Counted from the first letter of the stretch, positions 1,584 through 46,586 are shown. The stretch is DNA of 47,691 nucleotides from an uncultured Coriobacteriia bacterium (GCA_964461725.1 CAYWVN010000001.1:1-47691); one strand, 5' to 3'. Notes: generated by a model from the sequence alone, not told the origin. Numbers and translations are program-made.

Positions 1584-1823
1584 CCTGCCCAAGATGGTCT
1601 TAAGGGCACGAGATCGTCGCTTCAGATTACCCATGACTTCTCGCTCAGCCGCGGCCATCCAAGGCCTGGTGTGGGCGTGCGGCGGCCTGTTCATGCAGCG
1701 TTCTCGCGTAACAGAGCGCGCGGTTTCTCGTTGTACTAGTGTCAGGGCAACAGGGGCCCGCCCGTGGCAACTTGAAGAGCTGTGCGGTTGCGGCGGCGGG
1801 GATTTCCAGACGGGGTAGGAGAC

Positions 1824-6404: not shown

Positions 6405-6427
6405 CCAGGAGAGGACGCACGGCCATT

Positions 6428-15352: not shown

Positions 15353-15405
15353 GAAACGCCGAGGTCGGAGTGGCCAAAGGGGCGCGTCCGGACGGGCTGC
15401 GTCTC

Positions 15406-15435
15406 TGGACGGATGGGCACAGTCTGGGGTATAGT
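15406..15435 (+). promoter_or_regulatory. Possible promoter TGGACG-18 nt-TATAGT
   Basis: Found by eye in the 342-nt gap before the second cytochrome gene. The -35 matches 4/6 and the -10 matches 5/6. Confidence 0.3.
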
Positions 15436-15592
15436 AATAAGGTGTTTCGTCTCCGGGGATGATTTCGGCGGCGAACACGGATGTAGGGCCGCAGCCACAT
15501 CCGCTCCGCCCGATTCTATATGCCCCAGCTGGGCAAAGGCTTGTTCGTGCCGGGCGGGACCGAGGCGGGGGGCGTGAGGTGGTTGTGGATAA

Positions 15593-15608
15593 TGTGAACT
15601 GGTTCACA
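15593..15608. promoter_or_regulatory. Perfect CRP/GlxR-type operator TGTGA-N6-TCACA
   Basis: TGTGA (15593-15597), actggt, TCACA (15604-15608). The arms extend to TGTGAAC/GTTCACA. It lies 87 nt upstream of ATG 15695 of the second multihaem cytochrome. Confidence 0.55.
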
Positions 15609-15694
15609 TGCGGACACCGAGGGCGGCAGAAAGCCACCGTGGGTGTCGCGGTGTGCTGCGCCCAGGGGTGCGCACGAATGCAGGATCAGCACGC

Positions 15695-18451
15695 ATGATA
15701 GTGGTGAAGAGAGGGGTTCTGGGGCTCTCGGCGTCGATTGCCGTGATGCTGGCGTTGGCCGGCCTTTGGGCACCGGTTGCGTCGGCCGCCAACGCTCACT
15801 CCAGCTACTCGCGGGGGACGGAGCGATGCCGCTCCTGTCACTTCAACCACACCGCCGCGGAATCGGACAGCCTGCTCAAGACGTCCACTGTGTCAGGCAG
15901 CTGCCGGATGTGCCATGACGGTACTGGGAGCGATTACGACGTCGAGGCGGGGACCGCGTTCGGTAAGCCGGCTCCTGCCGGGAACGCGGCCATGCGCTCG
16001 GGTCGGACCACATCGGCCCATGACCTGGACGTGACGACCAAGGCGCCGGGTGGCTCCGGTAACTGGATCGAGATGGACTGCGCGGCGTGCCATGCCCCGC
16101 ACGGTTCGGAGAACTTCCGGAACCTGCGCGAGAATATCCTGGGACGGGCGGTCTCGGTGTCGGCGGATGTTCGCCCGGCGACCTCCACGTCCGCCGAGGT
16201 TGTCACATACAAGGGTGGCAACGTTGAGTTCTGCACCGCGTGTCATACGACCTACTACCAGGACACCTCTCGGGGGCACTACTTCCTCAGGTCGGCCGGC
16301 AAGGCGGAGGCCGGATCACGGTTGATTTGTGAGGACTGCCACAACTCCCATGGCTCCCGCGGCACCGGCAGCATCTTGTCCGAGGAGCTTCTGACGGCGG
16401 TCAGGGGAGAGCGGCTGTTGGCCAGCGGCGGGTACCAGCGCTTCGTCTCTCTGGAAAGCGATGCTTGGGACAGCCGGGTCGGGGTGACAATCTATGTTAA
16501 CGGTCATCGTGCCGACGGGAACTACAAGGTCAACTACGACGAGGCCTACGTGCAGTTCGACGCCCCGCTGGATGACAATGCCAAGGTGACCGCCGACTAT
16601 CGGCGTACCGGGGTCTCGAAAGGCTCAAGCGGGCGGAGGCGAAGGGACGCGTGCCTGGCGTGTCACCACGCCAAGAACGCTCCGGCTCTGTATGGTCGCC
16701 AGCCGGTGCAGATGCTGACCGGCATGGAGGGTCACGATATCGGACTTCTTCGCCCCTGTCAGGACTGCCACGGCGACGTGCATGACGTCGGGCCCGGCGA
16801 CAGCGGGTGCTACCCCTGCCACTCCGAGTTCGACCCGGTGAGCGGCAAGAGCGGTCCGGCCTCGGACCTGCTGTCGCTCATGGGCGAGTCGAAGAACGGG
16901 CTGGCACCCAAGGTGAAGTACCACCACACGATAACGGACGGGCGTAGTGCGGGCACCAACTCCTGCGAGGTCATGTGTCATGCGCCTCACCCGCACTACA
17001 GGGGCGCGGCCTCCGCGGGCGCTTCCGCGCACACCTGGCTCACCAGCCCGGCTCTGGGTACCGTAGAGGTCAGCATGGCCGCCCGGACGGACTACGACTA
17101 CGTTGGCGCGGGCGGCGGTGGGGTGTGCCTCTCCTGCCACTCCGCCGACTCCAAGGTAGTCCCCAGCGACCTCCAGGTCGACGCGCGCGTCTATCAAGAC
17201 AGTCTCCACAGCTACAAGACGGCCGTCTACGACGCCGACTTCGGTTCGAGCGCGGCCGGCGACGGTACGTTCTACGAGGCGGGTTGCGCGAAGTGCCACT
17301 CTCCGCATGGCTCGAATCTTCCAGGCATGATGCGGCAGGCCATCAAGGACACGGGTTTGTCCGAGGAGGGCCGGGTCCATGAGGTGAAGACCGATTCGAG
17401 GGGACGGCTTAGCGATTCCGTCTGCTATGCGTGTCATGCGGAGGCGAGCTCGGGCCTTCCGACCAGCAGCTATAGCCTGCTGGCCTATCCGTTCGGCCCC
17501 GCGACCGACAATGGCTCGGCGTTCTATCCCGGGCGGGGGTCGCTCGTCGACTATGATCGCGCCCGCTGGCCCGGATTCGACGTGTATGCCGAGTCGGCCC
17601 ACGGGAACAAGACCGACGCCCAGATGCGTTGGCCGGGTACCGACTCCGGGCAAGGGTCCCCGTACGCCAAGGACGCCGATCTGTCCTACACGCGTGAGGC
17701 ACCGGTGGGCGATGAAGGCAAGTGCAAGAACTGTCATGCGACACACGGCTCCAGCGAGAACGACATGCTGCTGGCGGCCTACAGCGGAACGGCCGGCGAA
17801 ACGCAAGCGATCAACAACGTGTGCTTCGTCTGCCACGACGCGGACGGGCCCGCGCAGAACATCTACCAGTACTACGACAGCGATGCTGCCGGGCCGTCGG
17901 CTGGGCACGCACTCAAGGTAGGCGGTGCGGGCAAGGCGGCCGGCTACAAACTGCTCTGCAGCGATTGTCACGCACCGCACGGCTCCAAGAACGGAAACGG
18001 CGCCATGCTGTCCGACAGCCTGAACACCAGCAGCTACCAGCTGTCCGCGCCGGACGACCCGGCCAGCCACGATGCGACCTGCATCGCTTGTCACGGCAGC
18101 CCGGGAGGGAACTACGGCGCGCAAGTTGCCGGCCGCGTCATGTATGGGCACGCTATCGTCACCACTCCGGCCGATCACGCCGAGAAGACCGGCCGGTGCC
18201 TCCATTGCCACGGACCGGCCCACGCGCCGAGTTCGGGGACGGCTTCCGGGGACGAGTGCTACAGCTGCCATCCCGACGGTACGCCAGAGTCAGGTGGCGT
18301 CACGGGCGGCACAGATGGCGGCACTGGTGGCGTCACGGGCGGCTCCGAGGGCGATACCGGCGCGGCGACCGGCGGCTCCGCAGGGACTATCGGCGGCGCG
18401 TCATGGGGCGTTCTTCAAGGGGCAACATCGGCCGTCAAGAACAGGCGTTAG
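15695..18451 (+). CDS. Secreted multihaem c-type cytochrome (17 CxxCH + 1 CxxxCH, ~18 haem sites) with a Gly-rich repeat tail
   Basis: Signal peptide MIVVKRGVLGLSASIAVMLALAGLWAPVASA/AN. Motifs CRSCH, CRMCH, CAACHAPHG, CTACH, CEDCHNSHG, CLACH, CQDCH, CYPCH, CEVMCH, CLSCH, CAKCHSPHG, CYACH, CKNCHATHG, CFVCH, CSDCHAPHG, CIACH, CLHCH, CYSCH. The track start 15608 lies upstream of the signal peptide. Confidence 0.9.
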   Translation: MIVVKRGVLGLSASIAVMLALAGLWAPVASAANAHSSYSRGTERCRSCHFNHTAAESDSLLKTSTVSGSCRMCHDGTGSDYDVEAGTAFGKPAPAGNAAMRSGRTTSAHDLDVTTKAPGGSGNWIEMDCAACHAPHGSENFRNLRENILGRAVSVSADVRPATSTSAEVVTYKGGNVEFCTACHTTYYQDTSRGHYFLRSAGKAEAGSRLICEDCHNSHGSRGTGSILSEELLTAVRGERLLASGGYQRFVSLESDAWDSRVGVTIYVNGHRADGNYKVNYDEAYVQFDAPLDDNAKVTADYRRTGVSKGSSGRRRRDACLACHHAKNAPALYGRQPVQMLTGMEGHDIGLLRPCQDCHGDVHDVGPGDSGCYPCHSEFDPVSGKSGPASDLLSLMGESKNGLAPKVKYHHTITDGRSAGTNSCEVMCHAPHPHYRGAASAGASAHTWLTSPALGTVEVSMAARTDYDYVGAGGGGVCLSCHSADSKVVPSDLQVDARVYQDSLHSYKTAVYDADFGSSAAGDGTFYEAGCAKCHSPHGSNLPGMMRQAIKDTGLSEEGRVHEVKTDSRGRLSDSVCYACHAEASSGLPTSSYSLLAYPFGPATDNGSAFYPGRGSLVDYDRARWPGFDVYAESAHGNKTDAQMRWPGTDSGQGSPYAKDADLSYTREAPVGDEGKCKNCHATHGSSENDMLLAAYSGTAGETQAINNVCFVCHDADGPAQNIYQYYDSDAAGPSAGHALKVGGAGKAAGYKLLCSDCHAPHGSKNGNGAMLSDSLNTSSYQLSAPDDPASHDATCIACHGSPGGNYGAQVAGRVMYGHAIVTTPADHAEKTGRCLHCHGPAHAPSSGTASGDECYSCHPDGTPESGGVTGGTDGGTGGVTGGSEGDTGAATGGSAGTIGGASWGVLQGATSAVKNRR
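18293..18391 (+). repeat. Three imperfect 33-bp (11-aa) Gly-rich tandem repeats at the C-terminus of the second cytochrome
   Basis: GGTGGCGTCACGGGCGGC occurs at 18293-18310 and again at 18326-18343. The protein reads GGVTGGTDGGT / GGVTGGSEGDT / GAATGGSAGTI. Confidence 0.7.
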
Positions 18452-25068: not shown

Positions 25069-25096
25069 TTCCAACCCTAGGTGCCTGGTATATCAT
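25069..25096 (+). promoter_or_regulatory. Promoter TTCCAA-16 nt-TATCAT upstream of tatA
   Basis: Same -10 hexamer and same spacer length as the 1412-1439 promoter. It lies inside the 5' end of the track ORF 25081..25554. Confidence 0.4.
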
Positions 25097-25158
25097 ACGG
25101 TGGGTGTCGGCGCCTGGTCCGGCATCTTTCTGCATCTGCGAGAAGAGGTGAGCGGGAC

Positions 25159-25554
<396 letters not shown>

Positions 25555-25581: not shown

Positions 25582-26322
25582 GTGGCCGAACCGCGCATGG
25601 GTTTCCTGGACCACCTAGGCGAACTCAGATCGCGCCTCATCGTCGCCGTGGCGGCCTGGGGTGCGGCCGCGATCGTCGCGTTCTTCTTCGTCGAGCCCAT
25701 CTTCGTGTGGCTCAAGCGCCCGATCAACGACATCAAGAACATCCACCTCATCTACCAGACCGTGCTCGAACCGTTCATGACCAAGATCAAGATCGCGGCA
25801 TTCGCGGGCCTCGGGCTGGCGCTCCCAGTCATCAGCTACGAGTTCCTGGCTTTCGTCTCTCCGGCGCTTCGCAAGAAGGAGAAGAAGTACATCTACCCGA
25901 TTCTCTTCTTCTTGGTGCTCCTGTTCGTGGGCGGCGCGATGTTCTGCTACTTCCTGGTGCTGAAGAACAGCGCCGAATGGTTGGTCAACCAGTCTTTCGG
26001 CGGGATGCAGCCCTATCTGACAGTCAGCCAATACATCTCCTTCGTGGCTCTGTTCATGATCGCCTTCGGGGTGGGCTTCGAGACGCCGCTTGTCGTGCTC
26101 CTGCTGGTCATGCTGGGCGTGGTGAGTCCGAAGGCGCTCCGGCAGAACTGGCGGGTGGCGACTGTCGTCATCCTGCTGGTGGCGGCGGTGGCAACCCCTG
26201 ACTGGAGCCTGCCCCCGATGATCATCCTGTCCGTAGCCATGATGGTTCTCTACTGGATCAGCGTGCTGGTTTCTTATGCCCTGGTGCGGGGCCGCAAGAA
26301 GAACCTCCTCGAGGAGGACTAG
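25582..26322 (+). CDS. tatC: Sec-independent translocase TatC
   Basis: N-terminus GFLDHLGELRSRLI and a six-TM layout typical of TatC. RBS TAGGAGC lies 9 nt upstream of GTG 25582. Confidence 0.9.
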   Translation: MAEPRMGFLDHLGELRSRLIVAVAAWGAAAIVAFFFVEPIFVWLKRPINDIKNIHLIYQTVLEPFMTKIKIAAFAGLGLALPVISYEFLAFVSPALRKKEKKYIYPILFFLVLLFVGGAMFCYFLVLKNSAEWLVNQSFGGMQPYLTVSQYISFVALFMIAFGVGFETPLVVLLLVMLGVVSPKALRQNWRVATVVILLVAAVATPDWSLPPMIILSVAMMVLYWISVLVSYALVRGRKKNLLEED

Positions 26323-26352
26323 GCCGCGGCGGCGGTCCGAGGTGAGGCCGTG

Positions 26353-27501
26353 ATGGTAGCTTCGCGTCTCAGTAGGCGGGAGTTCCTGGTCTACTGTGGA
26401 GCCCTGGCCGCCTGGTTGGGGCTCTCCGAACTGTACGTTCCCCAGATCGCCCGGGCGATCGAGCAGCTCACCAGACGCAAGGTGCCGCTCGTCTGGCTGC
26501 AGGGCCAGGCGTGCGCCGGCTGCACGATCTCGACTCTGAACTCCGGCGAGCCGACGGCCGCTGAGATCATCCTGGACGTGGCCTCGCTGCGCTACCAGCC
26601 CAACCTGATGGCCGCGACGGGCGACCAGGCGATGGTCGCGATACAGGACACCATCAAGAAGGAGAAGGGCAGGTTCGTCGCCGTCATCGAAGGCTCCATC
26701 CCGACCGCGCACAACGGCGCCTTCTGCGTGGTGGGTCGCGCGGACAACCGGCCGATCCCCTTCACGGCGCTGGCCCGCCAGGCCGCGGACGCGGCGCTGG
26801 CCACCGTTGCCGCTGGGACCTGCGCCGCATACGGGGGTATTCCGGCCGCGAACAAGGGGGTCACGGGTGCGCGCGGGGCCGAGGCGTTCCTGAACCGGCC
26901 CGTGGTGAACGTCCCGGGCTGCCCGACCCACCCGGACTGGCTGGTCGGCACTCTGGTCAAACTGGTTCTCTTCGGCAAAGACGCGGTGATGGCGGACTTG
27001 GACGGCCTGGGCCGGCCCAAGGAGTTCTTTCGCACGCTGGTCCACGACAACTGCCCGCGGCGGCACTGGTTCGAGGCCGGGCTCTTCGTCGAGGACTGGA
27101 ACGATCCCGCACAGGCCGGCCGATGCCTGTTGCTCAAGGGCTGCAAGGGCCCATTCACCTTCGCCGACTGTCCCAAGCGGCGGTGGAACGATCACGTCAA
27201 CTTCTGCATCGACGCGAACGCCCCCTGCGCGGGGTGCACGCAGCCCGAGTTCTACGCGCGCTTCGCACCCCTCTACCAGCGGTCCTTGTCCGTGCGGGTG
27301 CCGGGACTGGCCGGCGCGGAGGTTTCGGCCGACCGGGTGGGGATGGCCCTCGGGGTGGCGACCGCGGTCGGCATCGGGGCGCATCTGGCGGGTCAGATCG
27401 CGACGGGGCGCCTGGGCCACGGGGGGCCGCGCGAGGGCGCCGGCCAGGATGAGGGTTCCGGCCGCGCCGATGGCCCAGGCCGCGCCGATGGGGAGGGCTA
27501 G
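26353..27501 (+). CDS. [NiFe(Se)] hydrogenase small subunit, Tat-exported, with a C-terminal membrane anchor
   Basis: Twin-arginine signal SRREFLVYCGALAAW. Fe-S cluster motifs WLQGQACAGCTIS, GTCAAYGGIP, KGCKGPFTFADCPKRRWN and NFCIDANAPCAGC. C-terminal hydrophobic helix MALGVATAVGIGAHLAGQI. Confidence 0.9.
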   Translation: MVASRLSRREFLVYCGALAAWLGLSELYVPQIARAIEQLTRRKVPLVWLQGQACAGCTISTLNSGEPTAAEIILDVASLRYQPNLMAATGDQAMVAIQDTIKKEKGRFVAVIEGSIPTAHNGAFCVVGRADNRPIPFTALARQAADAALATVAAGTCAAYGGIPAANKGVTGARGAEAFLNRPVVNVPGCPTHPDWLVGTLVKLVLFGKDAVMADLDGLGRPKEFFRTLVHDNCPRRHWFEAGLFVEDWNDPAQAGRCLLLKGCKGPFTFADCPKRRWNDHVNFCIDANAPCAGCTQPEFYARFAPLYQRSLSVRVPGLAGAEVSADRVGMALGVATAVGIGAHLAGQIATGRLGHGGPREGAGQDEGSGRADGPGRADGEG

Positions 27502-27504
27502 CCT

Positions 27505-29085
27505 ATGGGCGAGCGCATCTCCATCGGGCCGGTCACGAGGATAGAAGGCCACCTCAACGTGGAGGTGGAGGTCGAGAACGGCAAGGTCGTCGAAGCCTGG
27601 GTGGGCGCTACCATGGCCCGCGGCTTCGAGCAGCTCATCGTCGGCCGAGACCCGCGGGACGCCCAGATCGTCATGCAGCGCATCTGCGGCATCTGCCCGG
27701 CCTCGCACGGACTGGCGGCCGCGCAGGCCCTGGACGAGGCGTTCGGCGCCGAGGTTCCCGACAACGGCCGCCTCGTCCGCAATCTGACCGTGGCGGCCGA
27801 CTGGCTTCAGTCGCACATCCTGCACTTCTATCATCTGGGGCTACTCGACTTCATAGATATCACCGCGGTCGGCACGTACAAAGGCCGTGACCCGGCTCTC
27901 AGGGCCGTCAAGGACAAGCTCGTCGCGCTGTCCGATTCGTCCGATCCCTACCCCTTTAGCCCCGGCTACCCGCCGGATGAGACCTCGGTGGCCGATCCAG
28001 GGACGGTGCTCACACTGGTGGCGCACTACCTCAAGGCGCTCGAGGTCCGAAAGAAAGCGCACGTCATGGCCGCCATCTTCGGCGGCAAGATGCCCCACTA
28101 CTGCTCCGTGGTGCCGGGTGGTGTCACCATGCACCCGCAGCTCTCCGATGTGACGGCGTTCCGGTTCCATCTGGCGGAGATCACGGACTTCATCAATGAC
28201 GTCTACGTCAAGGATGTTCTGGCACTCTGCACGGGACCCCTCCTCGAGATGGGCAAGAACGGCCTTGGCGTAGCCGTGCCCAACTATCTCTCATTCGGCA
28301 TGTTCGACCTGGAGGAATCGGGCAATACGACGAAGCCGCGCCTGCTGCCTCCGGGGGTGATCATGGACAGCAACGTAGCCCAGGTGCAGGAGCTCGATCC
28401 GTCGAAGGTGCGGGAGTTCGTCAAGGACTCTTGGTACACGGCGGCCTGCGGGAACCGGCATCCCAAAGAGGGCAGGACGGAGTTCATGACCGGCAAGGCC
28501 GAGGCGTACAGTTTCTCCAAGGCGGCCCGCTACGACGGGCGCCCCGTGGAGGTCGGGCCCCTGGCGCGGATGCTGGTCGGCGCGGACAAGACACTCTCGA
28601 GCCTGCTTGGCCAGTACCAGATCAAGTACGGTGCGGTCGCCCGTCATCTGGCCCGGGCGCTTGAGTGCCGGAAGGTCGCCGAGGCCATGATGTCGTGGGT
28701 GGAGGAGCTGGCCGGCAACCTGAAGGCAGGGAACGCGGACGTCTGCGACGATACGGCGCCGCCGGTCGCCGGCGTAGGCCGCGGTCTCGTGGAGGCGCCG
28801 CGCGGCGCGCTCGGCCACTGGATCGAGATCGCCGATGGTGTTACCAAGAACTACCAGGTGGTGTCGCCGACCACGTGGAACGCGGGGCCGCGCGACGACC
28901 AGGCGTCGCGGGGACCGATGGAAGAGGCGCTGATGAACACTCCGGTTTCGGACACGGCGGCGCCGCTGAACGTCATGCGAGTCGTGCGCTCGTTCGACCC
29001 ATGACTGGCCTGCGCCGTCCACGTGATTGGACTAGGGCCGGAACGTGAGAGGCAGTGTGCCCCAAACGGGGTGGGGGTGCTCTGA
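27505..29085 (+). CDS. [NiFeSe] hydrogenase large subunit; selenocysteine encoded by TGA 29002-29004 (the track ORF stops there)
   Basis: N-terminal Ni-ligand motif RICGICPASH. The track ORF ends ...VVRSFDP-TGA. In-frame continuation reads LACAVH-VIGLGPERERQCAPNGVGVL-TGA (29083-29085). This restores DP-U-xxCxxH plus a cleavable tail. Confidence 0.85.
29014..29038 (+). promoter_or_regulatory. SECIS-like hairpin downstream of the hydrogenase UGA
   Basis: GCC-GUCCA [CGUGAU] UGGAC-uag-GGC. The stem starts 10 nt after the UGA, and the apical loop contains G and U. Folded by hand only. Confidence 0.4.
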
Positions 29086-29600
29086 TGGCTGAAGACACCG
29101 GAAAGCCCGGAAAGCACGGGAAGCCAGAACGGATCATCGTGATGGGTGTGGGGAACACGCTACTCACCGATGAGGCCGTCGGGGTCAAGGTAATCGAAGA
29201 GCTGCGCGCTTACGACCTGCCGGACAACGTCCAGCTGGTCGACGGCGGAACCGGCGGACTGGACCTCATCGGCTACATGAGCCAGGCGGACCGTATGATC
29301 GTGGTGGATGCCGTCGACGCCGGCAAGCCGCCCGGCTCCATCTTCCGTTTCACGCCCCAGGACGTGGAGGGGGCGCTCGAGAAGAAGCAGGCCGCCATGT
29401 CGCTGCACGACGTCGGGCTGATCGAATCCTTCGTGGTGGGTCGCCAGCTCGGCCACGAGCCGGACGTCGTCATCATCGGTATCCAGCCCAAGGACCTCAC
29501 CTGGGGCATGGAGCTTACCCCGGAGGTCGCCGCCAAGGTCCCGCGGCTGATCGAACTGGTCCTCGAGGAGCTGGGTCTTTCCGGTTCTTCCCCGGGCTGA
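29085..29600 (+). CDS. Hydrogenase maturation endopeptidase (HyaD/HybD/HynC family)
   Basis: IIVMGVGNTLLTDEAVGVKVIEEL...VDGGTGGLDL...MIVVDAV...SLHD motifs. ATG 29085 overlaps the true large-subunit stop (TGATG). Confidence 0.85.
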   Translation: MAEDTGKPGKHGKPERIIVMGVGNTLLTDEAVGVKVIEELRAYDLPDNVQLVDGGTGGLDLIGYMSQADRMIVVDAVDAGKPPGSIFRFTPQDVEGALEKKQAAMSLHDVGLIESFVVGRQLGHEPDVVIIGIQPKDLTWGMELTPEVAAKVPRLIELVLEELGLSGSSPG

Positions 29601-29629: not shown

Positions 29630-30184
29630 CTAGCCTGCGCGGTCCATCACGTACTTCAGCGTGCGTACGTTGTCTCTGATCGCAGTCTCTCCGGACGCGG
29701 GCTTCACGATAGCCGTAAGGCTGTTGGTGCTTCCCTGGTTCGAAGACACGCCGGAGAACACCAAGCGTCGGTTCGCGCCCATCGCCAATGAGGGCACGTT
29801 CCTGGCAAGAGTCGCCACATTCCGGTTCAGACTCTCGTCGCGGACCGTGAGCGTGACGCGGACCGAGCGCAACGGACGCACGCCGGTGTTCTTCACCTCG
29901 AAGAAGACGGTGAGCTGAGGGCGATAGGCAAGCAGGTGTACGCCGGTGCTTGGGTACACCTCCAGCACCTTCGCGTCGGTCGTGAGGCTCTCGATGGACG
30001 CATTCGTCCTCGATCGCCCCCCGTCGGTTCCCGTGTGCCAAGTAGGCTGGAAAGCTGCAGCTAGATACACCCCCACGCTGCTCATCACCAGCACCAAGGC
30101 GGTCGACAAGACGAATGACTCTAGAGTGCTCGTGTGGGCCGCTGCGGTCTGACGCTGGGTGCCGCCGGCTTTCTCTTCCGGCAT
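29630..30184 (-). CDS. Hypothetical membrane-anchored beta-sandwich protein (LEA_2/CARDB-like guess)
   Basis: Minus-strand ORF with RBS AAAGGA 8 nt before the ATG (30184). TM helix FVLSTALVLVMSSVGVYLAAA, followed by beta-rich alternating patterns (LTVFFEVKNTGVRPLRSVRVTLTV). Confidence 0.55.
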   Translation of the reverse strand: MPEEKAGGTQRQTAAAHTSTLESFVLSTALVLVMSSVGVYLAAAFQPTWHTGTDGGRSRTNASIESLTTDAKVLEVYPSTGVHLLAYRPQLTVFFEVKNTGVRPLRSVRVTLTVRDESLNRNVATLARNVPSLAMGANRRLVFSGVSSNQGSTNSLTAIVKPASGETAIRDNVRTLKYVMDRAG

Positions 30185-30626: not shown

Positions 30627-30776
30627 ATGAAGAAGGCAGTAGCTCTGATGCTGTCGGCGCTCATCTTGGCGGTAGCGGTCAGCACCAGCGTGGCCACTCC
30701 ACAGAAGGCCAAGCAGACCGGCAAGGACTGCAGCTCGTGTCACAAGGGCGGCAAGACGGGCCCGGACGGCAAGTAG
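30627..30776 (+). CDS. Very small secreted monohaem c-type cytochrome-like peptide (49-aa precursor, ~25-aa mature)
   Basis: MKKAVALMLSALILAVAVSTSVA/TPQKAKQTGKDCSSCHKGGKTGPDGK. It has a classical signal peptide, a single CSSCH, and RBS GGGGAAGGGGGTG 7 nt upstream. It is embedded in the track ORF 30492..30776. Confidence 0.55.
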   Translation: MKKAVALMLSALILAVAVSTSVATPQKAKQTGKDCSSCHKGGKTGPDGK

Positions 30777-30782
30777 CATCCG

Positions 30783-31201
30783 ATGGCATCACGCGCGCGG
30801 CCGGTTGTCCCCGATAGACGCACTGCGAAACAAGCGAACCGGCCGGGGGCAACGGAAGGAGGGAGAAGTACGAGAGGCAAGGCAATCGCTCTGGTCGTGG
30901 TCCTCGCGCTGGCGGTCGTCACGCTGGCGGCGGCTTCCGCTTCCGCGGGCACAAAGTCCTCCGTTTGCGACAACAACATCTATGTCAAGCACATGCAGAT
31001 GGGCGGTGGCGATGCGGCGCGCTGCCTCGCGTGCCATGCCAGCAAGAAGGACGCGATGCCCGGGGAACTAAGGGGCAAGTACGCCAATATGGGGGCCCCA
31101 ACCACGGGTGCACGGACTGCCACTACGAAGGCGGCAAGGCTGTACCGCTGCCGCTGCCGTGGGGCGCCAACTCGTGCTCCGATTGTCATCCCGGCAAGTA
31201 G
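30783..31201 (+). pseudogene. c7-like trihaem cytochrome gene split by a 1-nt frameshift in a G5C4 run (31091-31099)
   Basis: Frame of 30783: signal anchor KAIALVVVLALAVVTLAAASASA plus CLACH. The -1-shifted frame of 30965..31201 reads GPNHGCTDCHYEGGKAVPLPLPWGANSCSDCHPGK-stop. Adding one G or C at ATGGGGGCCCC joins them. Each frame loses all motifs beyond the junction. Confidence 0.65.
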
Positions 31202-31275
31202 CTAGGCAATGGCGCTTGTAGGTTTGTAACGCACCGGCCGGGCCTCAGGCGGTCCAGGCGGGGACACAGCTTCGA

Positions 31276-31437: not shown

Positions 31438-31890
31438 ATGCACGAATTCGGCATCACCCAGGAGATACTGAGGATCGCCCAGGAGCGGGCGGAAGCCGCT
31501 GGTGCGGAGAAGGTCACCAAGGTGAAGTTGACCGTCGGCGCCATGACCGGCGTGGTCGAGGACAGCCTGCGCTTCTACTGGGACCAGCTCGTGGCCGGCA
31601 CGGTCGTCGAGGGGGCGGAGCTGGAGGTAGACAACGTACCCATCACCTTGCGCTGTCCGAGCTGCAACGAGGAGAGCGAGGTCGAAGACGTCGCGCTGAT
31701 GTGCCCCAAGTGCTCGGCGTTCGGGCCCGAGGTGATTGCCGGCAAGGAGCTGCAGGTGAGCTCGCTGGAGGTCGAAGGCGGAGAAGAACTTGTGGCGGGC
31801 GGCGAATCTGAAGAGCAGGAAGACGAGGGCGGGGAAGCGAACGCCGGCGCGGAAGCCGCGGCGCAAAGCCCCGTTGAAGGAGGTCAGTAG
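31438..31890 (+). CDS. hypA: Hydrogenase nickel-insertion protein HypA with an acidic C-terminal extension
   Basis: MHEFGITQEIL start. Zinc site CPSCN...CPKC. An extra ~45-aa Glu/Gly/Ala-rich tail. Confidence 0.85.
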   Translation: MHEFGITQEILRIAQERAEAAGAEKVTKVKLTVGAMTGVVEDSLRFYWDQLVAGTVVEGAELEVDNVPITLRCPSCNEESEVEDVALMCPKCSAFGPEVIAGKELQVSSLEVEGGEELVAGGESEEQEDEGGEANAGAEAAAQSPVEGGQ

Positions 31891-31893
31891 AAC

Positions 31894-32541
31894 GTGGAAG
31901 TGAAAGTGCTCGAGAACGTACTGGCGGCCAACGACGCCATCGCGGCTGAGAACAGGGACAATCTCAAGAAGAACGGCGTATTCACGGTCAACTTGATGGC
32001 CTCACCCGGTGCCGGCAAGACCAGCTTCATCTTGCAGACGATCGACCGTCTCAGGGACGAAATGGCCATCGCCGTCATCGAGGGCGACATCACCTCCTCG
32101 GTGGATGCGGAGAAGGTGAGCGAGCAAGGGGTGGCGGCTGTCCAGATCAACACGGGCGGCTCGTGCCACTTGGATGCCAACATGACGCGCAACGGTCTGA
32201 ACGCCATCGACCTGACCGCGAGCGATCTGCTCATCATCGAGAATGTCGGCAATCTCGTCTGCCCGGCCGGGTTCGACCTGGGCGAGGACGCCAAGGTGAT
32301 GATCCTCTCGATACCGGAGGGCGACGACAAGCCCTTGAAGTACCCGCTGATGTTCAGCGAGTGCGAAGCACTCATCCTGAACAAGATCGACATGATGTCG
32401 ATGAGCGACTTCTCTATGGATAGGCTGCGCGAGGTCGTGAGCGGACTCAACCCCGACATGAAGGTCTTCCCGATGTCCTGCAAGTCGGGCGAGGGCGTGG
32501 AGGATTGGATCGCCTACCTCAAGGCCCGCATGGGGCGCTAG
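31894..32541 (+). CDS. hypB: Hydrogenase accessory GTPase HypB
   Basis: P-loop ASPGAGKTS, ENVGNLVCPA and NKID motifs. GTG start 3 nt after the hypA stop. Confidence 0.9.
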   Translation: MEVKVLENVLAANDAIAAENRDNLKKNGVFTVNLMASPGAGKTSFILQTIDRLRDEMAIAVIEGDITSSVDAEKVSEQGVAAVQINTGGSCHLDANMTRNGLNAIDLTASDLLIIENVGNLVCPAGFDLGEDAKVMILSIPEGDDKPLKYPLMFSECEALILNKIDMMSMSDFSMDRLREVVSGLNPDMKVFPMSCKSGEGVEDWIAYLKARMGR

Positions 32542-33132: not shown

Positions 33133-34311
33133 ATGGGGATTATCGTGACTGAGACTCGCGAGATCATCTACCTGGACAACGCGGCGACCTCGTTTCCCAA
33201 GCCGTGCCAGGTCATCGAAGCCGTCACAGACTGCATGGAGCACCACGGCGCCAATCCGGGCCGCGGGGCGCATTCCATGAGCCTGGAGGCCAGCCGCATC
33301 ATCTTCGAGACCCGGGAGCGCATGGCCGCCTTCCTGGGCGCCCAGGACTCAGCCGACGTCGTCTTCACCAAGAACGCCACCGAGGCCTTGAATATCGGGC
33401 TGAAGGGTTTTGTCCGGGCGAGCGACCACATCGTGACGACCTCGATGGAGCACAACTCCGTGGCGCGGCCGATCGAGTGGCTTGTGCGACTGGGAGTCAA
33501 GCTCACCAAGGTGCAATGCTCGCCGGAGGGCGTGCTGGACCCCGAGGACGTCGACCGGGCCATCCGGGCCGACACGCGGCTCATCGCCGTGACCCACGCC
33601 TCGAATGTGACCGGTACCATCATGCCGATCGAGGCCATCGCCAAGATTGCCAGCAAACACGGCATCCCGGTCATGGTGGACGCGGCCCAGACGGCCGGCG
33701 TGTTGCCGATAGACGTCGGCGCGCTCGGCGTCGACATGGTGGCCTTCTCCGGCCACAAGGGGATGCTGGGACCGCAGGGGACCGGCGTGCTATACATCAG
33801 CCCGGATCTCGACCTGCGTGAGATGATGCAGGGTGGCACGGGCTCTGAGTCCGAGTCCATCCGGCAGCCCGTCGAGAGACCGGAGCGCTTCGAGTGTGGA
33901 ACTCCCAACACGCTCGGTATCGCCGGACTGGGCGCCGCGCTGGAGTTCCTGGGCGAAGTGGGACTGGACGCGGTTCGGGCGCGCGAGGTGGAGCTCACGG
34001 CGCGGCTCTTGGGCGGGTTCCGCGGGATTCCGGCAGTGACTGTCTACGGGCCGGGCGACGCGGAGGCGCGCACGGCTATCGTGTCTATCAACATCGACGG
34101 GATGGATTCGAGCCAGGCGGCATTCCTCCTCGACAAGAACTATCGGATCGCGGTGCGCTCCGGCCTGCATTGTGCGCCGGAGGCCCATCGGACGCTGGGC
34201 ACCCTGACGCCGGGCACGGTCCGCTTCAGTATCGGGTACTTCAACACTGCCGAAGACGTGGACGCCGCCATCAAAGCGGTGGCCGAGATCGCGGGCCGGG
34301 ACCGCACCTAG
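33133..34311 (+). CDS. Class V aminotransferase: cysteine desulfurase / selenocysteine lyase-like
   Basis: YLDNAATSFPKP N-terminus. PLP-lysine context FSGHKGMLGPQGTGVLY. Conserved Cys in RSGLHCAPEAH. The start could be ATG 33133 or GTG 33145. Confidence 0.8.
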   Translation: MGIIVTETREIIYLDNAATSFPKPCQVIEAVTDCMEHHGANPGRGAHSMSLEASRIIFETRERMAAFLGAQDSADVVFTKNATEALNIGLKGFVRASDHIVTTSMEHNSVARPIEWLVRLGVKLTKVQCSPEGVLDPEDVDRAIRADTRLIAVTHASNVTGTIMPIEAIAKIASKHGIPVMVDAAQTAGVLPIDVGALGVDMVAFSGHKGMLGPQGTGVLYISPDLDLREMMQGGTGSESESIRQPVERPERFECGTPNTLGIAGLGAALEFLGEVGLDAVRAREVELTARLLGGFRGIPAVTVYGPGDAEARTAIVSINIDGMDSSQAAFLLDKNYRIAVRSGLHCAPEAHRTLGTLTPGTVRFSIGYFNTAEDVDAAIKAVAEIAGRDRT

Positions 34312-34388: not shown

Positions 34389-35426
34389 ATGGCCGATGAA
34401 GTGAAGCTCACGCAGCTGGCAAGCAAGGCGGGCTGAGCGTCTAAGATGGGTCCGGGAGACCTGGAGAAAGCGCTGGCGGGCCTGCCCCGCGAGGTATCGG
34501 ACGAGCTGCTGGTCGGCTTCGAGCATTCGGACGACGCGGCCGTGTATCGGTTCTCGGACGACTGCACGTTGATCCAGACGGTGGACTTCTTCACGCCGGT
34601 CGTCGACACGCCGTACCTCTTCGGCCAGATATCGGCCGCCAACTCCCTGAGCGATATCTACGCGATGGGCGGCGAGCCGGTGACCGTCATGAACCTGGTG
34701 GGGTTCCCCTGCCATCTCGACTTGAGCGTCCTCGGCGAGATACTGCGGGGCGGTGCCGAGAAGGTGCGGGAAGCGGGGGCCGTCATCGTCGGCGGCCACA
34801 CGGTCCAAGACGACGAGCCCAAGTACGGGATGGCCGTCACCGGGCGGGTGATAGACGGGCGCTTCACGACCAACGCGGCGTGCCGCCCGGGGGACCGGCT
34901 GGTGCTGACCAAGCGTCTCGGCATCGGGGTTCTCTCGACGGCGCTGAAGGGCGGGCTGATCGGTGAAGACGACATGATGCCGGCCATCGATGAGGCGCGG
35001 ATGCTGAACCGTGCGGCCGCCGAGGCGATGCGTGAGGTCGGGGCCCATGCCTGCACCGACGTCACCGGTTTCGGTCTGGCCGGGCACCTGAAACTGATGC
35101 TGGAGGCGAGCGGCGCGTCGGCGCGGCTTTTCGGCGACGCGCTACCCATCTGGGAGAACGCGCTGGAGTTCGCGGCGACCGGCGTCATCCCGGGCGGGGC
35201 GCATGACAACGAGAAGTACTTGGCGTCTTGGATCGATGTAGGCGGCATGCACGATACGCGGAAGGAGTTTCTCTTCGACCCGCAGACATCGGGTGGGCTT
35301 ATCATCTCGGTCGCTTCAGAGCGCGAGACGGAGCTCCTGGCCGCGCTGGAGTCTCGTGGTGTCGCCACCAGGGCGGTCATCGGCGAGGTGTTCGACGGAC
35401 CGGCCGGGCATATCGCGATTTGCTAG
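34389..35426 (+). CDS. selD: Selenophosphate synthetase SelD, itself a selenoprotein (TGA 34434-34436 = Sec)
   Basis: The track ORF starts at ATG 34446, but the frame is open upstream: ATG 34389 MADEVKLTQLASKAG-TGA-ASKMGPGDLEKAL. This is the SelD active-site loop G(C/U)xxK. RBS GGGAGGTGA lies 9 nt before ATG 34389. A hand-folded hairpin at 34447-34463 is a possible SECIS. Confidence 0.8.
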
Positions 35427-35440
35427 AAGGGGGAACGGAA

Positions 35441-36019
35441 GTGGAGGCGAAGACGGTCGACGCGCGCGGGCTGGCCTGCCCGCAGCCGGTAATACTCACC
35501 AAGCAGGCTTTGGACGGCGGGGCCGATGCGGTGACGGTGCTCGTGGACAACGAGGCGGCCGTCGGCAACGTCTCCAAGATGGGGACGGCCTATGGGTGCA
35601 ACGTCACCGTGGAGGGCGCCGCCCCGGACTTCAAGCTGAACCTGGTCCGGGTCGGGGAGAAGGAAGCCGCGGCGCCGGCGACCGGCGAGACCGTGTTCCT
35701 TATCACCTCGGACGTCCTGGGCCAGGGCAGCGAGGAGCTGGGTCTGACGCTCCGGCGCAGTTTCCTACACGTTCTGACTGAAGTCGACTGCAAGCCGACT
35801 AGGCTCGTGTTGATGAACAGCGCCGTCAAGCTGGTGGTGGAGGGCTCGCCGGTCCTCGAGGACCTGAAGGCTCTTGACCGCGCCGGCGTCGGTATCGCGG
35901 CTTGCGGTCTGTGCCTCGACTACCTTAATCTGAAGGACAAGGTGGCCGTCGGCGAGGTCGGCAATATGTACGACTTCGTCGAGACGTTCATGTCGGGTGC
36001 CAAGGTAGTGAGCATCTAG
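35441..36019 (+). CDS. yedF: Selenium metabolism protein YedF (TusA-like domain + DsrE-like domain)
   Basis: VDARGLACPQPVILTK (CPxP sulfur/selenium-carrier motif), then a DsrE-like C-domain (VFLITSDVLGQGSEELG...). GTG 35441 follows GAAGGGGGAA. The track start 35228 would overlap selD by ~200 nt. Confidence 0.75.
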   Translation: MEAKTVDARGLACPQPVILTKQALDGGADAVTVLVDNEAAVGNVSKMGTAYGCNVTVEGAAPDFKLNLVRVGEKEAAAPATGETVFLITSDVLGQGSEELGLTLRRSFLHVLTEVDCKPTRLVLMNSAVKLVVEGSPVLEDLKALDRAGVGIAACGLCLDYLNLKDKVAVGEVGNMYDFVETFMSGAKVVSI

Positions 36020-36049: not shown

Positions 36050-37468
36050 TTGCCCACCAAGAACGAACTGCTGCGCCAGATTCCATCGATCGACCAATTG
36101 GTGGCCTCGCCTGAGGCGTCCCGCGCGCTAGAGCGCTTCGACCGCGAGCTGGTGGTCGATTGCCTCAGGGAGGCGGTCGACGGGCTGCGCGCGCAAGTTC
36201 TGGCCGCACCCGGCGAGGAGGGCCCCGAAGGCGTGGAGGTCACCGCGGCCGCTATCGCCGGGGAGGCGGAGACGATCGTGCGGCGTCTCTTCCAGCCCAA
36301 CCTGCAGCGTGTCATCAACGCGACCGGGGTGGTCATCCACACCAACCTGGGGCGCTCGATCCTGTCGGTGGAGGCCTGTGAGGCTGTGCAGATGGCGGCC
36401 CGCAACTACTCCAACCTGGAGTTCGATATCGGCTCCGGCGCGCGCGGCTCGCGCCACAGCCACGTCGAGACACTGCTCCGCGGGCTGACCGGCGCCGAAG
36501 CGGGGATGGTGGTGAACAACAACGCGGCCGCTGTGCTCCTCGCACTGGCCGCGCTGGCCGACGGCAAGGAGTCGATCGTCTCGCGCGGTCAGCTGGTGGA
36601 AATTGGCGGCTCCTTCCGCATCCCGGACGTCATGAGCCAGAGCGGCTCCATCTTGCGGGAGGTCGGCGCGACCAACAAGACACACCTGGCTGACTATGAG
36701 GCGGCCATCGGTGAGCGGACCGGCCTCTTGCTCCGGGTCCACCCGAGCAACTTCAAGATGATGGGGTTCACCACCGAGGTGAGCCTGGAGGAGCTGGTCG
36801 AGCTGGGCGCCAAGCGCGGCATCCCGGTCATGGAAGACCTGGGGAGCGGCGTGCTGGTCGATTTGTCATCGTATGGGCTGCCCTTCGAGCCGACCGTTCA
36901 GCACTCGGTGGCCAGCGGCGCCGACGTCGTCACATTCAGCGGGGACAAGCTTCTGGGCGGGCCGCAGGCCGGCGTCGTCGTGGGCAAGACGGAAGCGGTT
37001 GCCCGCATGAAGAAGCACCCGCTGGCCCGGGCGCTCCGCGTCGACAAGATGACCCTGGCGGCGCTGGAAGCGACACTGCGCGGCTATCTCAACCCGGCCC
37101 GCGTGCTGGAGGACAACCCGACGGTGCGCATGATCACGGTGGGCCGTGACGAACTCGCCCGCCAGGCCCAGGGGCTGGCCGAGAAGCTCTCCGCGCTGGC
37201 AGATCATTTCGACATCACCTGCGAAGACGAGATTTCCCGCGCCGGCGGAGGGGCGCTGCCGATGACAGAGCTCCCGACCGTGGTCGTGGCGCTGAAGCCC
37301 AAGACCGCCCGCGTGGAGGCGATCGAGGCGGCTCTGCGCACGGGGACGCCGCACGTCATCGCGCGGGTCAAGGAGGACCGGCTCCTTCTGGATCCGCGGA
37401 CCATCCAGACAGGCGAGGACGACGAGGTTCTGACCGCGCTGACCGCCGCGATGGGCAGAAGCGGATGA
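36050..37468 (+). CDS. selA: L-seryl-tRNA(Sec) selenium transferase SelA
   Basis: N-terminus LLRQIPSIDQLV. PLP-lysine motif FSGDKLLGGPQAGVVVG. Typical length of 472 aa. Confidence 0.9.
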   Translation: MPTKNELLRQIPSIDQLVASPEASRALERFDRELVVDCLREAVDGLRAQVLAAPGEEGPEGVEVTAAAIAGEAETIVRRLFQPNLQRVINATGVVIHTNLGRSILSVEACEAVQMAARNYSNLEFDIGSGARGSRHSHVETLLRGLTGAEAGMVVNNNAAAVLLALAALADGKESIVSRGQLVEIGGSFRIPDVMSQSGSILREVGATNKTHLADYEAAIGERTGLLLRVHPSNFKMMGFTTEVSLEELVELGAKRGIPVMEDLGSGVLVDLSSYGLPFEPTVQHSVASGADVVTFSGDKLLGGPQAGVVVGKTEAVARMKKHPLARALRVDKMTLAALEATLRGYLNPARVLEDNPTVRMITVGRDELARQAQGLAEKLSALADHFDITCEDEISRAGGGALPMTELPTVVVALKPKTARVEAIEAALRTGTPHVIARVKEDRLLLDPRTIQTGEDDEVLTALTAAMGRSG

Positions 37469-37477
37469 TTCCGGTGA

Positions 37478-39403
37478 GTGACGCCGGTGACTGACCAGAG
37501 CCATCCACTCATCCTCGGCACAGCCGGTCACATCGACCACGGCAAGACGGTGCTCATCAAGGCCCTGACGGGCATCGACACGGATCGCCTCAAGGAAGAG
37601 AAGGCCCGCGGCATCTCCATCGACCTCGGCTTCGCCCACCTGGAGCTTCCCAGCGGTCAGCGTCTGGGTATCGTCGACGTGCCCGGGCACGAGCGGTTCG
37701 TCAAGAACATGTTGGCCGGGGCGACCGGCATTGACATGGTGCTCCTGGTCGTGGCGGCCGATGACGGCTTGATGCCGCAGACGCTGGAGCACCTGGCCAT
37801 CATCGACCTCCTGGGGATCTCGCGCGGGGTGGTGGCGATCACCAAGTGCGACCTGGCCGAGGACGACTGGATCGACATGGTCGAGGAAGACATCCGCGGG
37901 GTCCTCAAGGGCACCGCGCTGGAGGGTGCGCCGATTGTGCGGGTGTCCGCCCGCGAGGGGCGCGGCCTCGACGACTTGAAGCGCGAGCTGGACGTGATCG
38001 CGATGGCTACCGTGCGCCGCGAGGACAAGGCGCCGGCGCGGCTGCCGGTGGACCGCGTGTTCTCTCTGACCGGCGCCGGCACGGTGGTGACCGGGACGCT
38101 GTGGTCCGGCCACATCCGCCCGGAGGACAAGGTGGTGCTGCAACCCGAGGGAAGAGAGGCGCGCGTCCGCAGCGTCCAGGTGCACGGCGAGAAGTCGACG
38201 GAAGCGGAGGCAGGCCAGCGGGTGGCGCTGAATCTGGCCGGGCTGGCTAAGACAGACCTCGCGCGCGGCGACTGGGCGACCGCCCCCCGCTACCTCTCGC
38301 CCTCCTGGATGGTCGACGTGCGGCTGCGCCTGCTCGCCGGCGCGCCGCGGCCGCTGCGTCATCGGACCCGGGTGCGGCTGCACCACGGCACGAGCGAGAT
38401 CCTGGGCCGGGTGGTGCTCTTGGACCAAGACGAACTGGCTCCCGGGAACGCCGCGTTCGCCCAGCTCAAGCTGGAAGCACCCATCGTGCCCAAGCGCGGC
38501 GACCGGTTCATCATCAGGTCGTACTCGCCGGTGCAGACGATCGGCGGGGGCCGGATAGTCGACAGCCATCCGCGGCGCCACCGTCGCCACGACGCGGAGG
38601 TCGTGAAGCGTCTCGACGAGCTTACCCACGCCGACCCGGACCGGGTGGTCGCGGTGGTCATAGAAGAGGAAGCCTGGCCCGTGGCGCTGGACGAGCTGGT
38701 CGCCCGCACCGAGCTCGAGACGATCGAGGTCGAGGAGGCGGTGAACCGACTCCTTTCGGAGGACAAAGTGGCCGTGCTCGATTTCGATGGCAAGAAGCAC
38801 TACGTGGCTCCGGGGCAGCTGGACTACCTGGAGGAACGACTGCTGCGCTACCTGGGCGAGTATCACCTCGCCAATCCGTTGAAGAAGGGTGCGGACAAGC
38901 AGGTTATGCGGGCCGAGGTCTTCGGCGACGCGCCGGCGCGCACCTTCGAGGGGCTGCTCGGCTACTTCGCCTCGCGGGGACTCATCAAGATGACGGGTCC
39001 GTTGGTCGCGCATGCTGAAGCCAAGCTGGATCTCGGGGAGCGGGACGAGAAGGCGCTCGAGCGGGTGGAGCAGGAGTTGGGCCGCGAGCTGTTTGCTCCG
39101 CCTGAGTTGACGGCCCTGATAGAGGCTGTCGGTCGCACCCCCGCCGAGGTCAAGGAAATGCTGAAGATCCTCGAGGAGAAGGGGTCCGTGACCCGGGTGA
39201 CCTCGGACCTGTACTTCCTGACCGAGGCCGTCGATCACGCCGTTCAGACAATCGAGGGTAAGCTCGCCGGCGAGAACGGCTTCACCGTCTCCGACTTCCG
39301 CCAGGCCGTGGGGACCAGTCGTAAGTACGCGCTCCCTCTGCTAAACTTCTTTGATGCGCGAGGGCTCACTCGTCGCGATGGCGACGTGCGGCGCCCGCGC
39401 TAG
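37478..39403 (+). CDS. selB: Selenocysteine-specific elongation factor SelB
   Basis: GTPase motifs [19 protein letters not shown] and TKCD. Long C-terminal winged-helix extension of ~300 aa. Lies between selA and tRNA-Sec. Confidence 0.9.
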
Positions 39404-39405
39404 AT

Positions 39406-39502
39406 GGAGGCGAATCAGTCCTGGTGGGCTGCCTGGTCTTCAAAACCACGGTAGGGCGTGAAGAGCGTCCTGGGTAGGTTCGATTCCTACACGCCTCCGC
39501 CA
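39406..39502 (+). tRNA. selC: tRNA-Sec (anticodon UCA)
   Basis: GGAGGCG acceptor arm pairs with CGCCTCC-G-CCA at the 3' end. 6-bp D stem CAGTCC/GGGCTG with loop TGGT. Anticodon loop CT-TCA-AA. Long variable arm (AGGGCG..CGTCCT). T arm GTAGG-TTCGATT-CCTAC. 97 nt in total. My hand fold leaves a C.C mismatch in the anticodon stem and an A.A at acceptor pair 8. Confidence 0.85.
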
Positions 39503-46297: not shown

Positions 46298-46319
46298 CAA
46301 TGACAACTTCATATCGGAA

Positions 46320-46445
46320 TTCTCCGACCCGACTTCTCTAAAGCCGCGCGAGCGGCCAAGGGATTAGGGCGAAGGGCCCGGCTCGACGGGGCTCACAGGG
46401 TGTAGCTGGAAACGGCTGTGCCTCCCGTGTTTGGAAAGGAGGAGA
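46320..46445 (+). ncRNA. Candidate Moco/Tuco (molybdenum/tungsten cofactor) riboswitch aptamer
   Basis: 5' UCUCCGACC ... GCCUCCC ... GGAAAGGAGGAGA resembles the conserved Moco-motif blocks as I recall them (CUCCGAGCC, GCCUCC, AAAGGAG). P1 is TCTCC/GGAGA. Internal hairpins GCCGC-GCGA-GCGGC and GGGC-GAAGG-GCCC. It sits in the 5' leader of a tungstate transporter. Not verified against a covariance model. Confidence 0.4.
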
Positions 46446-46463
46446 TCAGATGGCGCTCATGCG

Positions 46464-46503
46464 CCTACCTTTCCGGCATCGGGATCGGTAGGCGTTTTTG
46501 TTT
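46464..46503 (+). terminator. Intrinsic terminator inside the tupA leader (attenuator / riboswitch expression platform)
   Basis: CCTACC...(CCG-gcat-CGG)...GGTAGG followed by CG-TTTTT-G-TTT, 84 nt upstream of the tupA ATG. Confidence 0.6.
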
Positions 46504-46586
46504 GCCACCGCTTCCGTTGTCCGGAGGCGGCCACGATGCATACCCGGTCGCAATGCGTTTGTTCAAAGCAAGAAGGGAGAGGAGCC

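Follow-up and report, generated by a model that had tools for sequence, protein, structure and literature searches.

The stretch of DNA analysed here (the window) comprises 47,691 nt from an uncultured Coriobacteriia bacterium (GCA_964461725.1, CAYWVN010000001.1:1-47691) and carries on its plus strand a gene for the large subunit of a [NiFe]-type hydrogenase (27505–29085). The reading frame of this gene contains a TGA at 29002–29004, in place of the first Cys of the C-terminal metal-binding motif DPCxxCxxH. This TGA is most probably read as selenocysteine (Sec), at a probability of about 0.9, which would make the product a selenium-containing [NiFeSe] hydrogenase. Four independent lines lead to this reading: the conservation of the TGA in relatives, a hairpin specific to the TGA-containing genes, the presence of the decoding machinery and a second selenoprotein gene. 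The analysis below shows, from sequence and comparison, recoding of the codon, conservation of the hairpin, presence of the machinery and the family to which the enzyme belongs.

The in-frame TGA and its probable read-through product

In a one-frame translation of 27505–29085, a body of 499 residues ends ...MRVVRSFDP at the first TGA, which is preceded by CCA (context TTC GAC CCA TGA CTG GCC TGC GCC GTC CAC GTG). Past this codon the same frame runs through LACAVH and a 20-residue tail, VIGLGPERERQCAPNGVGVL, to a second TGA at 29083–29085, the A of which is the first base of the ATG (29085–29087) that starts a 171-residue protein. A preliminary description of this DNA had placed the end of the large-subunit ORF, the continuation and the second stop at these positions; the translation agrees with each, and all of its gene coordinates were correct. 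The overlap that it reported between the true stop and the start of a maturation protease gene is likewise present (TGATG, 29083–29087), the next gene being of the HycI/HybD type. Read through, the gene encodes a large subunit precursor of 526 codons with Sec500, Cys503, His506 and the 20-residue tail. Both metal-ligand motifs are then present, QRICGICPASH at residues 58–68 and DP-U-LACAVH (U, Sec) at residues 498–506. Without read-through two of the four metal ligands are lost, as the earlier description had argued, and the Ni-ligand motif is restored by it.

The same TGA is present in relatives, namely at loci L001, L004, L006, L007, L088, L089 and L090. Among the best 120 matches to the large subunit in a collection of 5.8 billion proteins, six stop at ...DP (the window product and five relatives) and 114 go on with CxxCxxH. 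In the DNA of those five relatives and of two more members of the cluster the codon is TGA throughout, and the frame continues with [IL][GA]C[AST]VH and then ~15 tail residues. The His at the end of the C-terminal motif is the known position of endopeptidase cleavage in [NiFe] maturation, and in solved mature [NiFeSe] chains the last residue is precisely the one that aligns with His506.

The tail of the window product (29023–29085) is unlike the tail common to its Sec- and Cys-type relatives (VIEPKTNEILKF..., VIEPKTNEILKFRV). Other frames after His506 were considered and rejected, as none gives the conserved EPxTNEILKF; the tail is simply divergent. This region is also the 3′ arm of the lower stem in the hairpin described below and the place of ribosome binding for the protease gene.

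A general scan of the window for further in-frame TGAs with coding-like flanks gave nothing else convincing. The only convincing in-frame TGAs are the Sec sites of the hydrogenase and of selD, therefore TGA is not a general sense codon in the window, and a general reassignment of TGA (code 4 or 25) was rejected.

The SECIS-type hairpin and the decoding genes

A hairpin of the selenocysteine insertion sequence (SECIS) type is located at 29005–29041 on the plus strand, as judged by fold prediction, comparison with relatives and pair counts. In the predicted fold the lower stem (29005–29011/29035–29041) starts straight after the UGA, and the upper stem of 5 bp (29017–29021/29028–29032) starts 12 nt after it. 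The apical loop, CGUGAU (29022–29027), begins 17 nt after the UGA. The criterion used for a bacterial SECIS was a hairpin just 3′ of the UGA with G as the first or the second base of its loop; here the G is second, which fits the bacterial consensus as cited in PMC13582414. The preliminary description had noted a SECIS-like hairpin starting 10 nt after the UGA; the hairpin is present, but neither of its stems begins at that distance.

On the criterion of at least 5 contiguous pairs at the same position, 12 of 13 distinct Sec-type loci have the hairpin at its fixed place, compared with 6 of 74 loci of the Cys type (Fisher p = 1.3e-9). The closest relative, P0002 (locus L092), which is 61 % identical to the window protein, is of the Cys type, with TGT at this position and without the hairpin. 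Two register groups were distinguished, the second consisting of HysA-type sequences, Slackia and Oleimmundimicrobium. Paired cells made up 97.6 % in the register group of the window and 100 % in the second group, and dropped to 64 % or less once the 3′ arm had been slid.

At one position of the stem the window carries a compensatory C-G pair where relatives carry U-A. A metagenome scan, with a pattern in which the loop was fixed and this pair was left free, gave at least 96 unique sequences; among the matches listed, 80 have U-A at this pair, 16 have G-C and none is mismatched. On its 5′ side the pair uses the silent third position of a Val codon, and on its 3′ side the second position of the codon four further on (Glu, Ala or Gly). 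Thus, RNA pairing overrides amino-acid identity at that codon.

Several observations weigh against the Sec reading. The case for it is made wholly from sequence and comparison. Shuffled sequences reach a fold energy as good as the hairpin's (z = −1.1 for 69 nt), and the z-score of the minimum free energy for 121 nt around it is +0.7; fold energy is thus uninformative, and support for the hairpin was taken from the comparison with relatives. An Rfam search of the hydrogenase hairpin at E ≤ 10 returned no family match. The covariation within the register group of the window amounts to one event, a level that 73 of 500 shuffles reach. Additionally, given the dissimilarity of the tail to the conserved tail of relatives, processing of the precursor is assumed without support from tail similarity.

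The complete Sec machinery had been reported to lie downstream of the hydrogenase, and selD, selA, selB and tRNA-Sec were all found there, 5.4–10.5 kb downstream and on the plus strand. SelD, the selenophosphate synthetase (34389–35426; TIGR00476, 341, for the downstream part), contains an in-frame UGA at 34434–34436 (...SKAG-U-ASK...). Its ORF was listed from 34446; the true start is the ATG at 34389, which has a GGAGG site and from which the frame reads MADEVKLTQLASKAG-TGA-ASKMGPGDL. UxxK is the known Sec position of selenoprotein SelD, and the motif is tabulated in PMC13188914. Judged by this motif, selD in the window is itself a selenoprotein gene, with Sec at the known position. A hairpin is predicted 10–27 nt after the selD UGA; an Rfam scan of the selD region gave chance-level matches only.

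SelA, the selenocysteine synthase, is encoded at 36050–37468 (TIGR00474, 610), followed by the Sec-specific elongation factor SelB at 37478–39403 (TIGR00475, 405), which has winged-helix SECIS-binding domains (Pfam SelB-wing_2, SelB-wing_3 and Beta-barrel_SelB). The tRNA-Sec with anticodon UCA lies at 39406–39502 (ARAGORN; Rfam RF01852, 74.7 bits against a gathering score of 47). Two further plus-strand genes are adjacent to these. One encodes a class V aminotransferase, cysteine desulfurase or selenocysteine-lyase-like (33133–34311), which scores above the cutoff of TIGR01977 (490) and is SclA-like, although below the cutoff of the SclA model (389, cutoff 525). The other, with an approximate start, encodes a YedF-like protein with TusA and DsrE-like parts (35429–36019; Pfam TusA 46 bits, DsrE weak).

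Alternative readings and a proposed mechanism

If the TGA were a genuine stop, the large subunit would be truncated two metal ligands short and the gene would be dead or decaying. By the standard code the ORF does stop at this codon, and public annotations of the relatives end at the same place. However, the 26 downstream codons restore xxCxxH in frame and finish exactly at the start of the protease gene, an arrangement kept in 8 distinct DNA sequences of relatives at 55–61 % protein identity and in at least 96 metagenome sequences; the hairpin is kept by compensatory change, and the nearby maturation and Sec genes are intact. A dead or decaying gene is thus very improbable. The same low probability is given to a sequencing or assembly error, in which the TGA would stand for TGC or TGT and the product would be an ordinary Cys-type [NiFe] hydrogenase. 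Such an error would involve a single base, and TGT is what the closest relative, P0002, has; yet the window has the Sec-type hairpin with its GUG loop, which few Cys-type genes have (6 of 74) and which that relative lacks, and the same contig carries the complete Sec system as well as another Sec gene, selD.

Insertion of cysteine or another residue at the UGA, through selenium limitation or a non-canonical tRNA, is scarcely less improbable than either of these, its precedent being the tRNA(ReC)-like recoding of UGA in the presence of SECIS elements cited in PMC13582414. However, ARAGORN and Rfam both identify the only such tRNA in the window as a standard tRNA-Sec, and its gene immediately follows selA and selB. 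Methanogen Vhu enzymes have a Sec-containing C-terminal peptide that is split from the remainder. A separate small subunit of this kind, like VhuU of Methanococcus voltae (listed in PMC13188914), could likewise supply the C-terminal piece with no read-through; against that precedent, the stretch from the TGA to CxxH contains neither a start codon nor a ribosome-binding site, the Sec codon would have to be the first codon, and the frame is continuous, so that this is the least probable of the alternatives by some distance.

With Sec at the TGA, which is the preferred reading, the product of 26350–29085 would be a group 1 uptake hydrogenase that is exported by Tat and anchored in the membrane. 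SelB with Sec-tRNA(Sec) would bind the hairpin, the loop of which begins 17 nt after the UGA, and deliver Sec at codon 500, and translation would continue for 26 codons to the TGA at 29083. After insertion of Ni and Fe, with HypA and HypB encoded nearby, the endopeptidase from the overlapping gene would cut after His506 and remove the 20-residue tail. The small subunit would hold three cubane-type Fe-S clusters. That selenium is actually incorporated, which way catalysis runs and what accepts the electrons are points that we infer; a group of c-type cytochromes, and not the cytochrome b of relatives, is the probable acceptor.

The genes that this scheme draws on are all on the plus strand. A TatA/B-type translocase component (25081–25554; Pfam TatA_B_E, 70 bits) and TatC (25582–26322; Pfam TatC, 205 bits) precede the hydrogenase, and TatC occupies the same upstream position in L001, L007, L089, L090 and L092. 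The small subunit follows at 26350–27501 (Pfam Oxidored_q6 and NiFe_hyd_SSU_C; TIGR00391, 293). The HycI/HybD-type maturation endopeptidase (29085–29600; PF01750, 102 bits; TIGR00072, 147) overlaps the large subunit gene as described above. Further downstream are the nickel metallochaperone HypA (31438–31890; TIGR00100, 99.7, cutoff 88) and a HypB-like GTPase of the CobW/HypB/UreG family (31894–32541; PF02492, 80 bits), which has the same position in relatives.

The Tat signal of the small subunit is SRREFL; the protein also contains three Fe-S cluster motifs and, at its C-terminus, a hydrophobic anchor. Its NFC motif places a fourth Cys at the medial-cluster position, aligned with NWC of 2wpn_A and 1cc1_S. 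This Cys is found in all 12 distinct Sec-type small subunits, whereas WP stands there in the standard group 1 enzymes of the sample; in standard enzymes, Pro238 (D. gigas numbering) at the medial position leaves the cluster as [3Fe-4S]. The Cys also occurs in Cys-type members of the same broad clade, thus it is a feature of the clade and is not linked to Sec. The medial cluster of the window small subunit is predicted to be [4Fe-4S], as in the solved [NiFeSe] enzymes.

Family placement, host and surrounding genes

The large subunit matches Pfam PF00374 over the whole length of the 499-residue body (448 bits) and passes the NCBIfam model NF033181, 'NiFeSe_hydrog': with the last 27 residues left off it still scores 649.1 bits, the cutoff being 600. 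The HysA model NF045518, for the large subunit of sulfate reducers, failed (437.8 bits, cutoff 780), as did the methanogen FrhA and VhuA models (162 and 111 bits, cutoffs 392 and 800), the match being confined to the N-terminal ~120 residues. The best PDB matches of both subunits are [NiFeSe] enzymes of Desulfovibrio vulgaris Hildenborough and Desulfomicrobium baculatum, those of the small subunit being 2wpn_A and 1cc1_S. HydDB places [NiFeSe] variants in group 1a (PMC5037454). The solved structures and the families nearest to the window enzyme are periplasmic and of the group 1a type.

In a neighbour-joining distance tree (66 large subunits, 478 columns, 200 bootstraps) the window protein pairs with the Cys-type P0002 (98 % bootstrap), and the HysA-type clade (L033, L039, L043) is separate (100 %). 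Together with the failure of the HysA model, this indicates that the window enzyme is not a HysA orthologue. The Sec-type Oleimmundimicrobium protein falls within the Cys-type Thermincola clade (99 %), the Sec-type Slackia protein is paired with a Cys-type sequence (98 %), and the Sec-type Actinomycetota homologues form no exclusive joint Sec clade with the window protein. Since Sec-type members are scattered among Cys-type clades, Sec and Cys appear, by the evidence of this distance tree with its weak deeper nodes (12–64 %), to have been swapped several times within group 1.

The periplasmic HysAB of D. vulgaris Hildenborough and Dm. baculatum (PDB 2WPN, 5JSH, 1CC1, 4KL8) likewise has Sec at the first Cys of DPCxxCxxH. 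It shares with the window a hairpin equally far from the UGA and with the same CAC-GUG core, as well as the fourth medial-cluster Cys, the Tat signal, a dedicated endopeptidase and an operon without a cytochrome b gene. It differs in the register of the hairpin and in the loop, which is the 5-nt CGUGC in place of the 6-nt CGUGAU of the window. Additionally, the window small subunit, unlike that of HysAB, has a C-terminal membrane anchor, and the host of the window enzyme appears to be of an actinobacterial-type lineage and not a sulfate reducer.

Also close are the periplasmic enzymes of the NF033181/HydDB 1a type from Firmicutes and Actinomycetota (Thermincola, Desulfitobacterium, Candidatus Aquicultor), at 50–61 % identity to the window. 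These share the medial-cluster Cys and the gene order TatC, small subunit, large subunit, but are mostly of the Cys type (114 of the best 120 matches), in contrast to the Sec of the window. Sec-type homologues are found in metagenome-assembled genomes (MAGs) of Actinomycetota, namely GCA_030651595.1 (Candidatus Oleimmundimicrobium), GCA_040755895.1, GCA_002339355.1 and GCA_964347095.1. Their TGA codon and hairpin are as in the window, and so is their neighbourhood of phosphoribosyltransferase, M54 peptidase, TatC, hydrogenase, HycI, HypA and HypB. However, they are only 55–61 % identical to the window protein, their loci have 42–48 % G+C as opposed to 64.8 %, and their tail is a conserved 15 residues where that of the window is a divergent 20. 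A cytochrome b gene directly follows the large subunit gene in all close relatives apart from Oleimmundimicrobium, which has HybA/NrfD-type genes; the hydrogenase locus of the window has neither, and a Pfam scan of the neighbouring ORFs found no cytochrome b near the hydrogenase.

A 2026 review describes [NiFeSe] hydrogenases as occurring exclusively in sulfate reducers and methanogens (PMC13188914), and a paper of September 2026 reports a wider occurrence of Sec for group 4 hydrogenases (PMC13582414). The statement in the preliminary description that these enzymes are known mainly from sulfate reducers and methanogens thus agrees with the literature, but sequence databases show Sec-type group 1 genes to be much more widely distributed. 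A genome-contig scan with generic N-terminal patterns listed matches at 80 diverse group 1 loci; among them, Sec-type genes were found in Desulfobacterales and in a Slackia MAG. In the latter (L061, Slackia sp. MAG DYEA01000002.1, Coriobacteriia) the group 1 TGA at ~11573 stands at the Ni-ligand position (...AHSFDP-U-IGCAVH) and has a 7-bp hairpin. A metagenome scan gave at least 120 Sec-type group 1 large subunits with several C-terminal contexts (...HTFDP-U-MACAVH, ...RSFDP-U-LGCAVHVIAP, ...AHSFDP-U-IGCAVH). At the metagenome loci L093–L172, which have the CACGUGAUUG hairpin, the contexts include the Hyb/Hya-like ...LEILRTVHTFDP-U-MACAVH and ...FEIVRIVRSFDP-U-LGCAVHVIAP. Sec variants therefore appear, from these sequences, to be widespread beyond HysA. 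As a separate observation, a Desulfobacteraceae MAG (L022) encodes at ~2173 a second large subunit, group 3/4-like, with ...SYDP-U-LSCATH and a hairpin that is placed differently.

These enzymes were not found described in a literature search that combined NiFeSe with Actinobacteria, Coriobacteriia or Oleimmundimicrobium. The enzyme type is well known, and the window member differs from the textbook examples in its branch and host lineage. As NF033181 is already curated and many Sec-type relatives exist, the window enzyme is not unique, and given the spread of Sec-type group 1 genes in the databases it is less exceptional than the preliminary description held. Taken together, the window, the Actinomycetota MAGs, the Slackia genome and the at least 120 metagenome matches make the restriction to sulfate reducers and methanogens outdated for group 1. 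The main value of the case lies in its being a further selenoprotein shortened by automated annotation: the public proteins of the window gene and of all Sec-type relatives found end at the TGA with two of the four metal ligands missing, therefore automated surveys will miscount or misclassify such enzymes. [NiFeSe] enzymes are prized for their O2 tolerance and high rates of H2 production, and the window enzyme and P0002 form a natural Sec/Cys pair, at 61 % identity, for comparing the contribution of selenium.

The order of genes around the hydrogenase is B12-radical SAM, polyprenyl synthase, amidohydrolase, RseC, phosphoribosyltransferase, M54 peptidase, TatA, TatC, small subunit, large subunit, HycI, HypA and HypB, an order common to the loci of the Actinomycetota MAGs. 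The best named relatives of SelA are from Candidatus Aquicultor and from Actinobacteria/Actinomycetota and Coriobacteriia MAGs, at no more than 62 % identity, and the nearest relative of the hydrogenase is only 61 % identical. The synteny and the SelA relatives point to deep-branching Actinomycetota; from these, we infer a host of a deep-branching, poorly sampled actinobacterial-type lineage, which is not meant as a classification.

Two giant multihaem c-type cytochromes are encoded in the window, one of 1540 aa with 19 CxxCH motifs (1782–6404) and one of 947 aa with 17 (15608–18451), and a ResB/CcsA system II haem-attachment pair (6359–8650) adjoins the giant cytochromes. This combination points to electron transfer of an extracellular or cell-wall kind in what is probably a monoderm. 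Between the protease gene and hypA lie two small putative monohaem cytochromes with signal/anchor segments and one CxxCH each (~30627–30776 and 30783–31205), which might be electron acceptors of the hydrogenase, and a CARDB-domain ORF is located at 29630–30184 on the minus strand. Metal respiration is among the group 1a roles in HydDB (PMC5037454), and the hydrogenase could, hypothetically, be coupled to the cytochromes of the window. A broader scenario combines these elements and is, as a whole, tentative and rather unlikely to hold in every part: Sec would have been gained or lost repeatedly in group 1; the enzyme would belong to a deep-branching, high-G+C, actinobacterial-type monoderm outside the sulfate reducers and methanogens; its cytochrome b partner would have been lost in favour of H2-driven extracellular electron transfer via cell-surface multihaem cytochromes; and the genome would strongly avoid UGA stops (TAG in 25 of 30).

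The stop codons of the 30 plus-strand gene ends are TAG in 25 cases, TGA in 5 and TAA in none, in a window of 64.8 % G+C where out-of-frame TGA and TAG trinucleotides occur at ~3.5:1. Three of the five TGA stops sit in start/stop overlaps. To our knowledge TAG is very unusual as the main stop in high-G+C bacteria, and the bias may represent avoidance of UGA. At the L092 locus of the closest relative (62 % G+C), TAG and TGA are used five times each.

Two minor features were also noted. A Moco (molybdenum/tungsten cofactor) riboswitch at 46310–46458 (66 bits, gathering score 36) is located directly upstream of, and overlaps the listed start of, a periplasmic-binding-protein gene (PBP_like_2, 46431–47486), which probably encodes a molybdate/tungstate transporter. 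The hydrogenase cluster of the related Actinomycetota contig L090 is followed downstream by a topoisomerase I gene (14300–18088) that contains an intein with a LAGLIDADG domain, the product being 1262 aa long in comparison with ~680 aa in L001 and L089.

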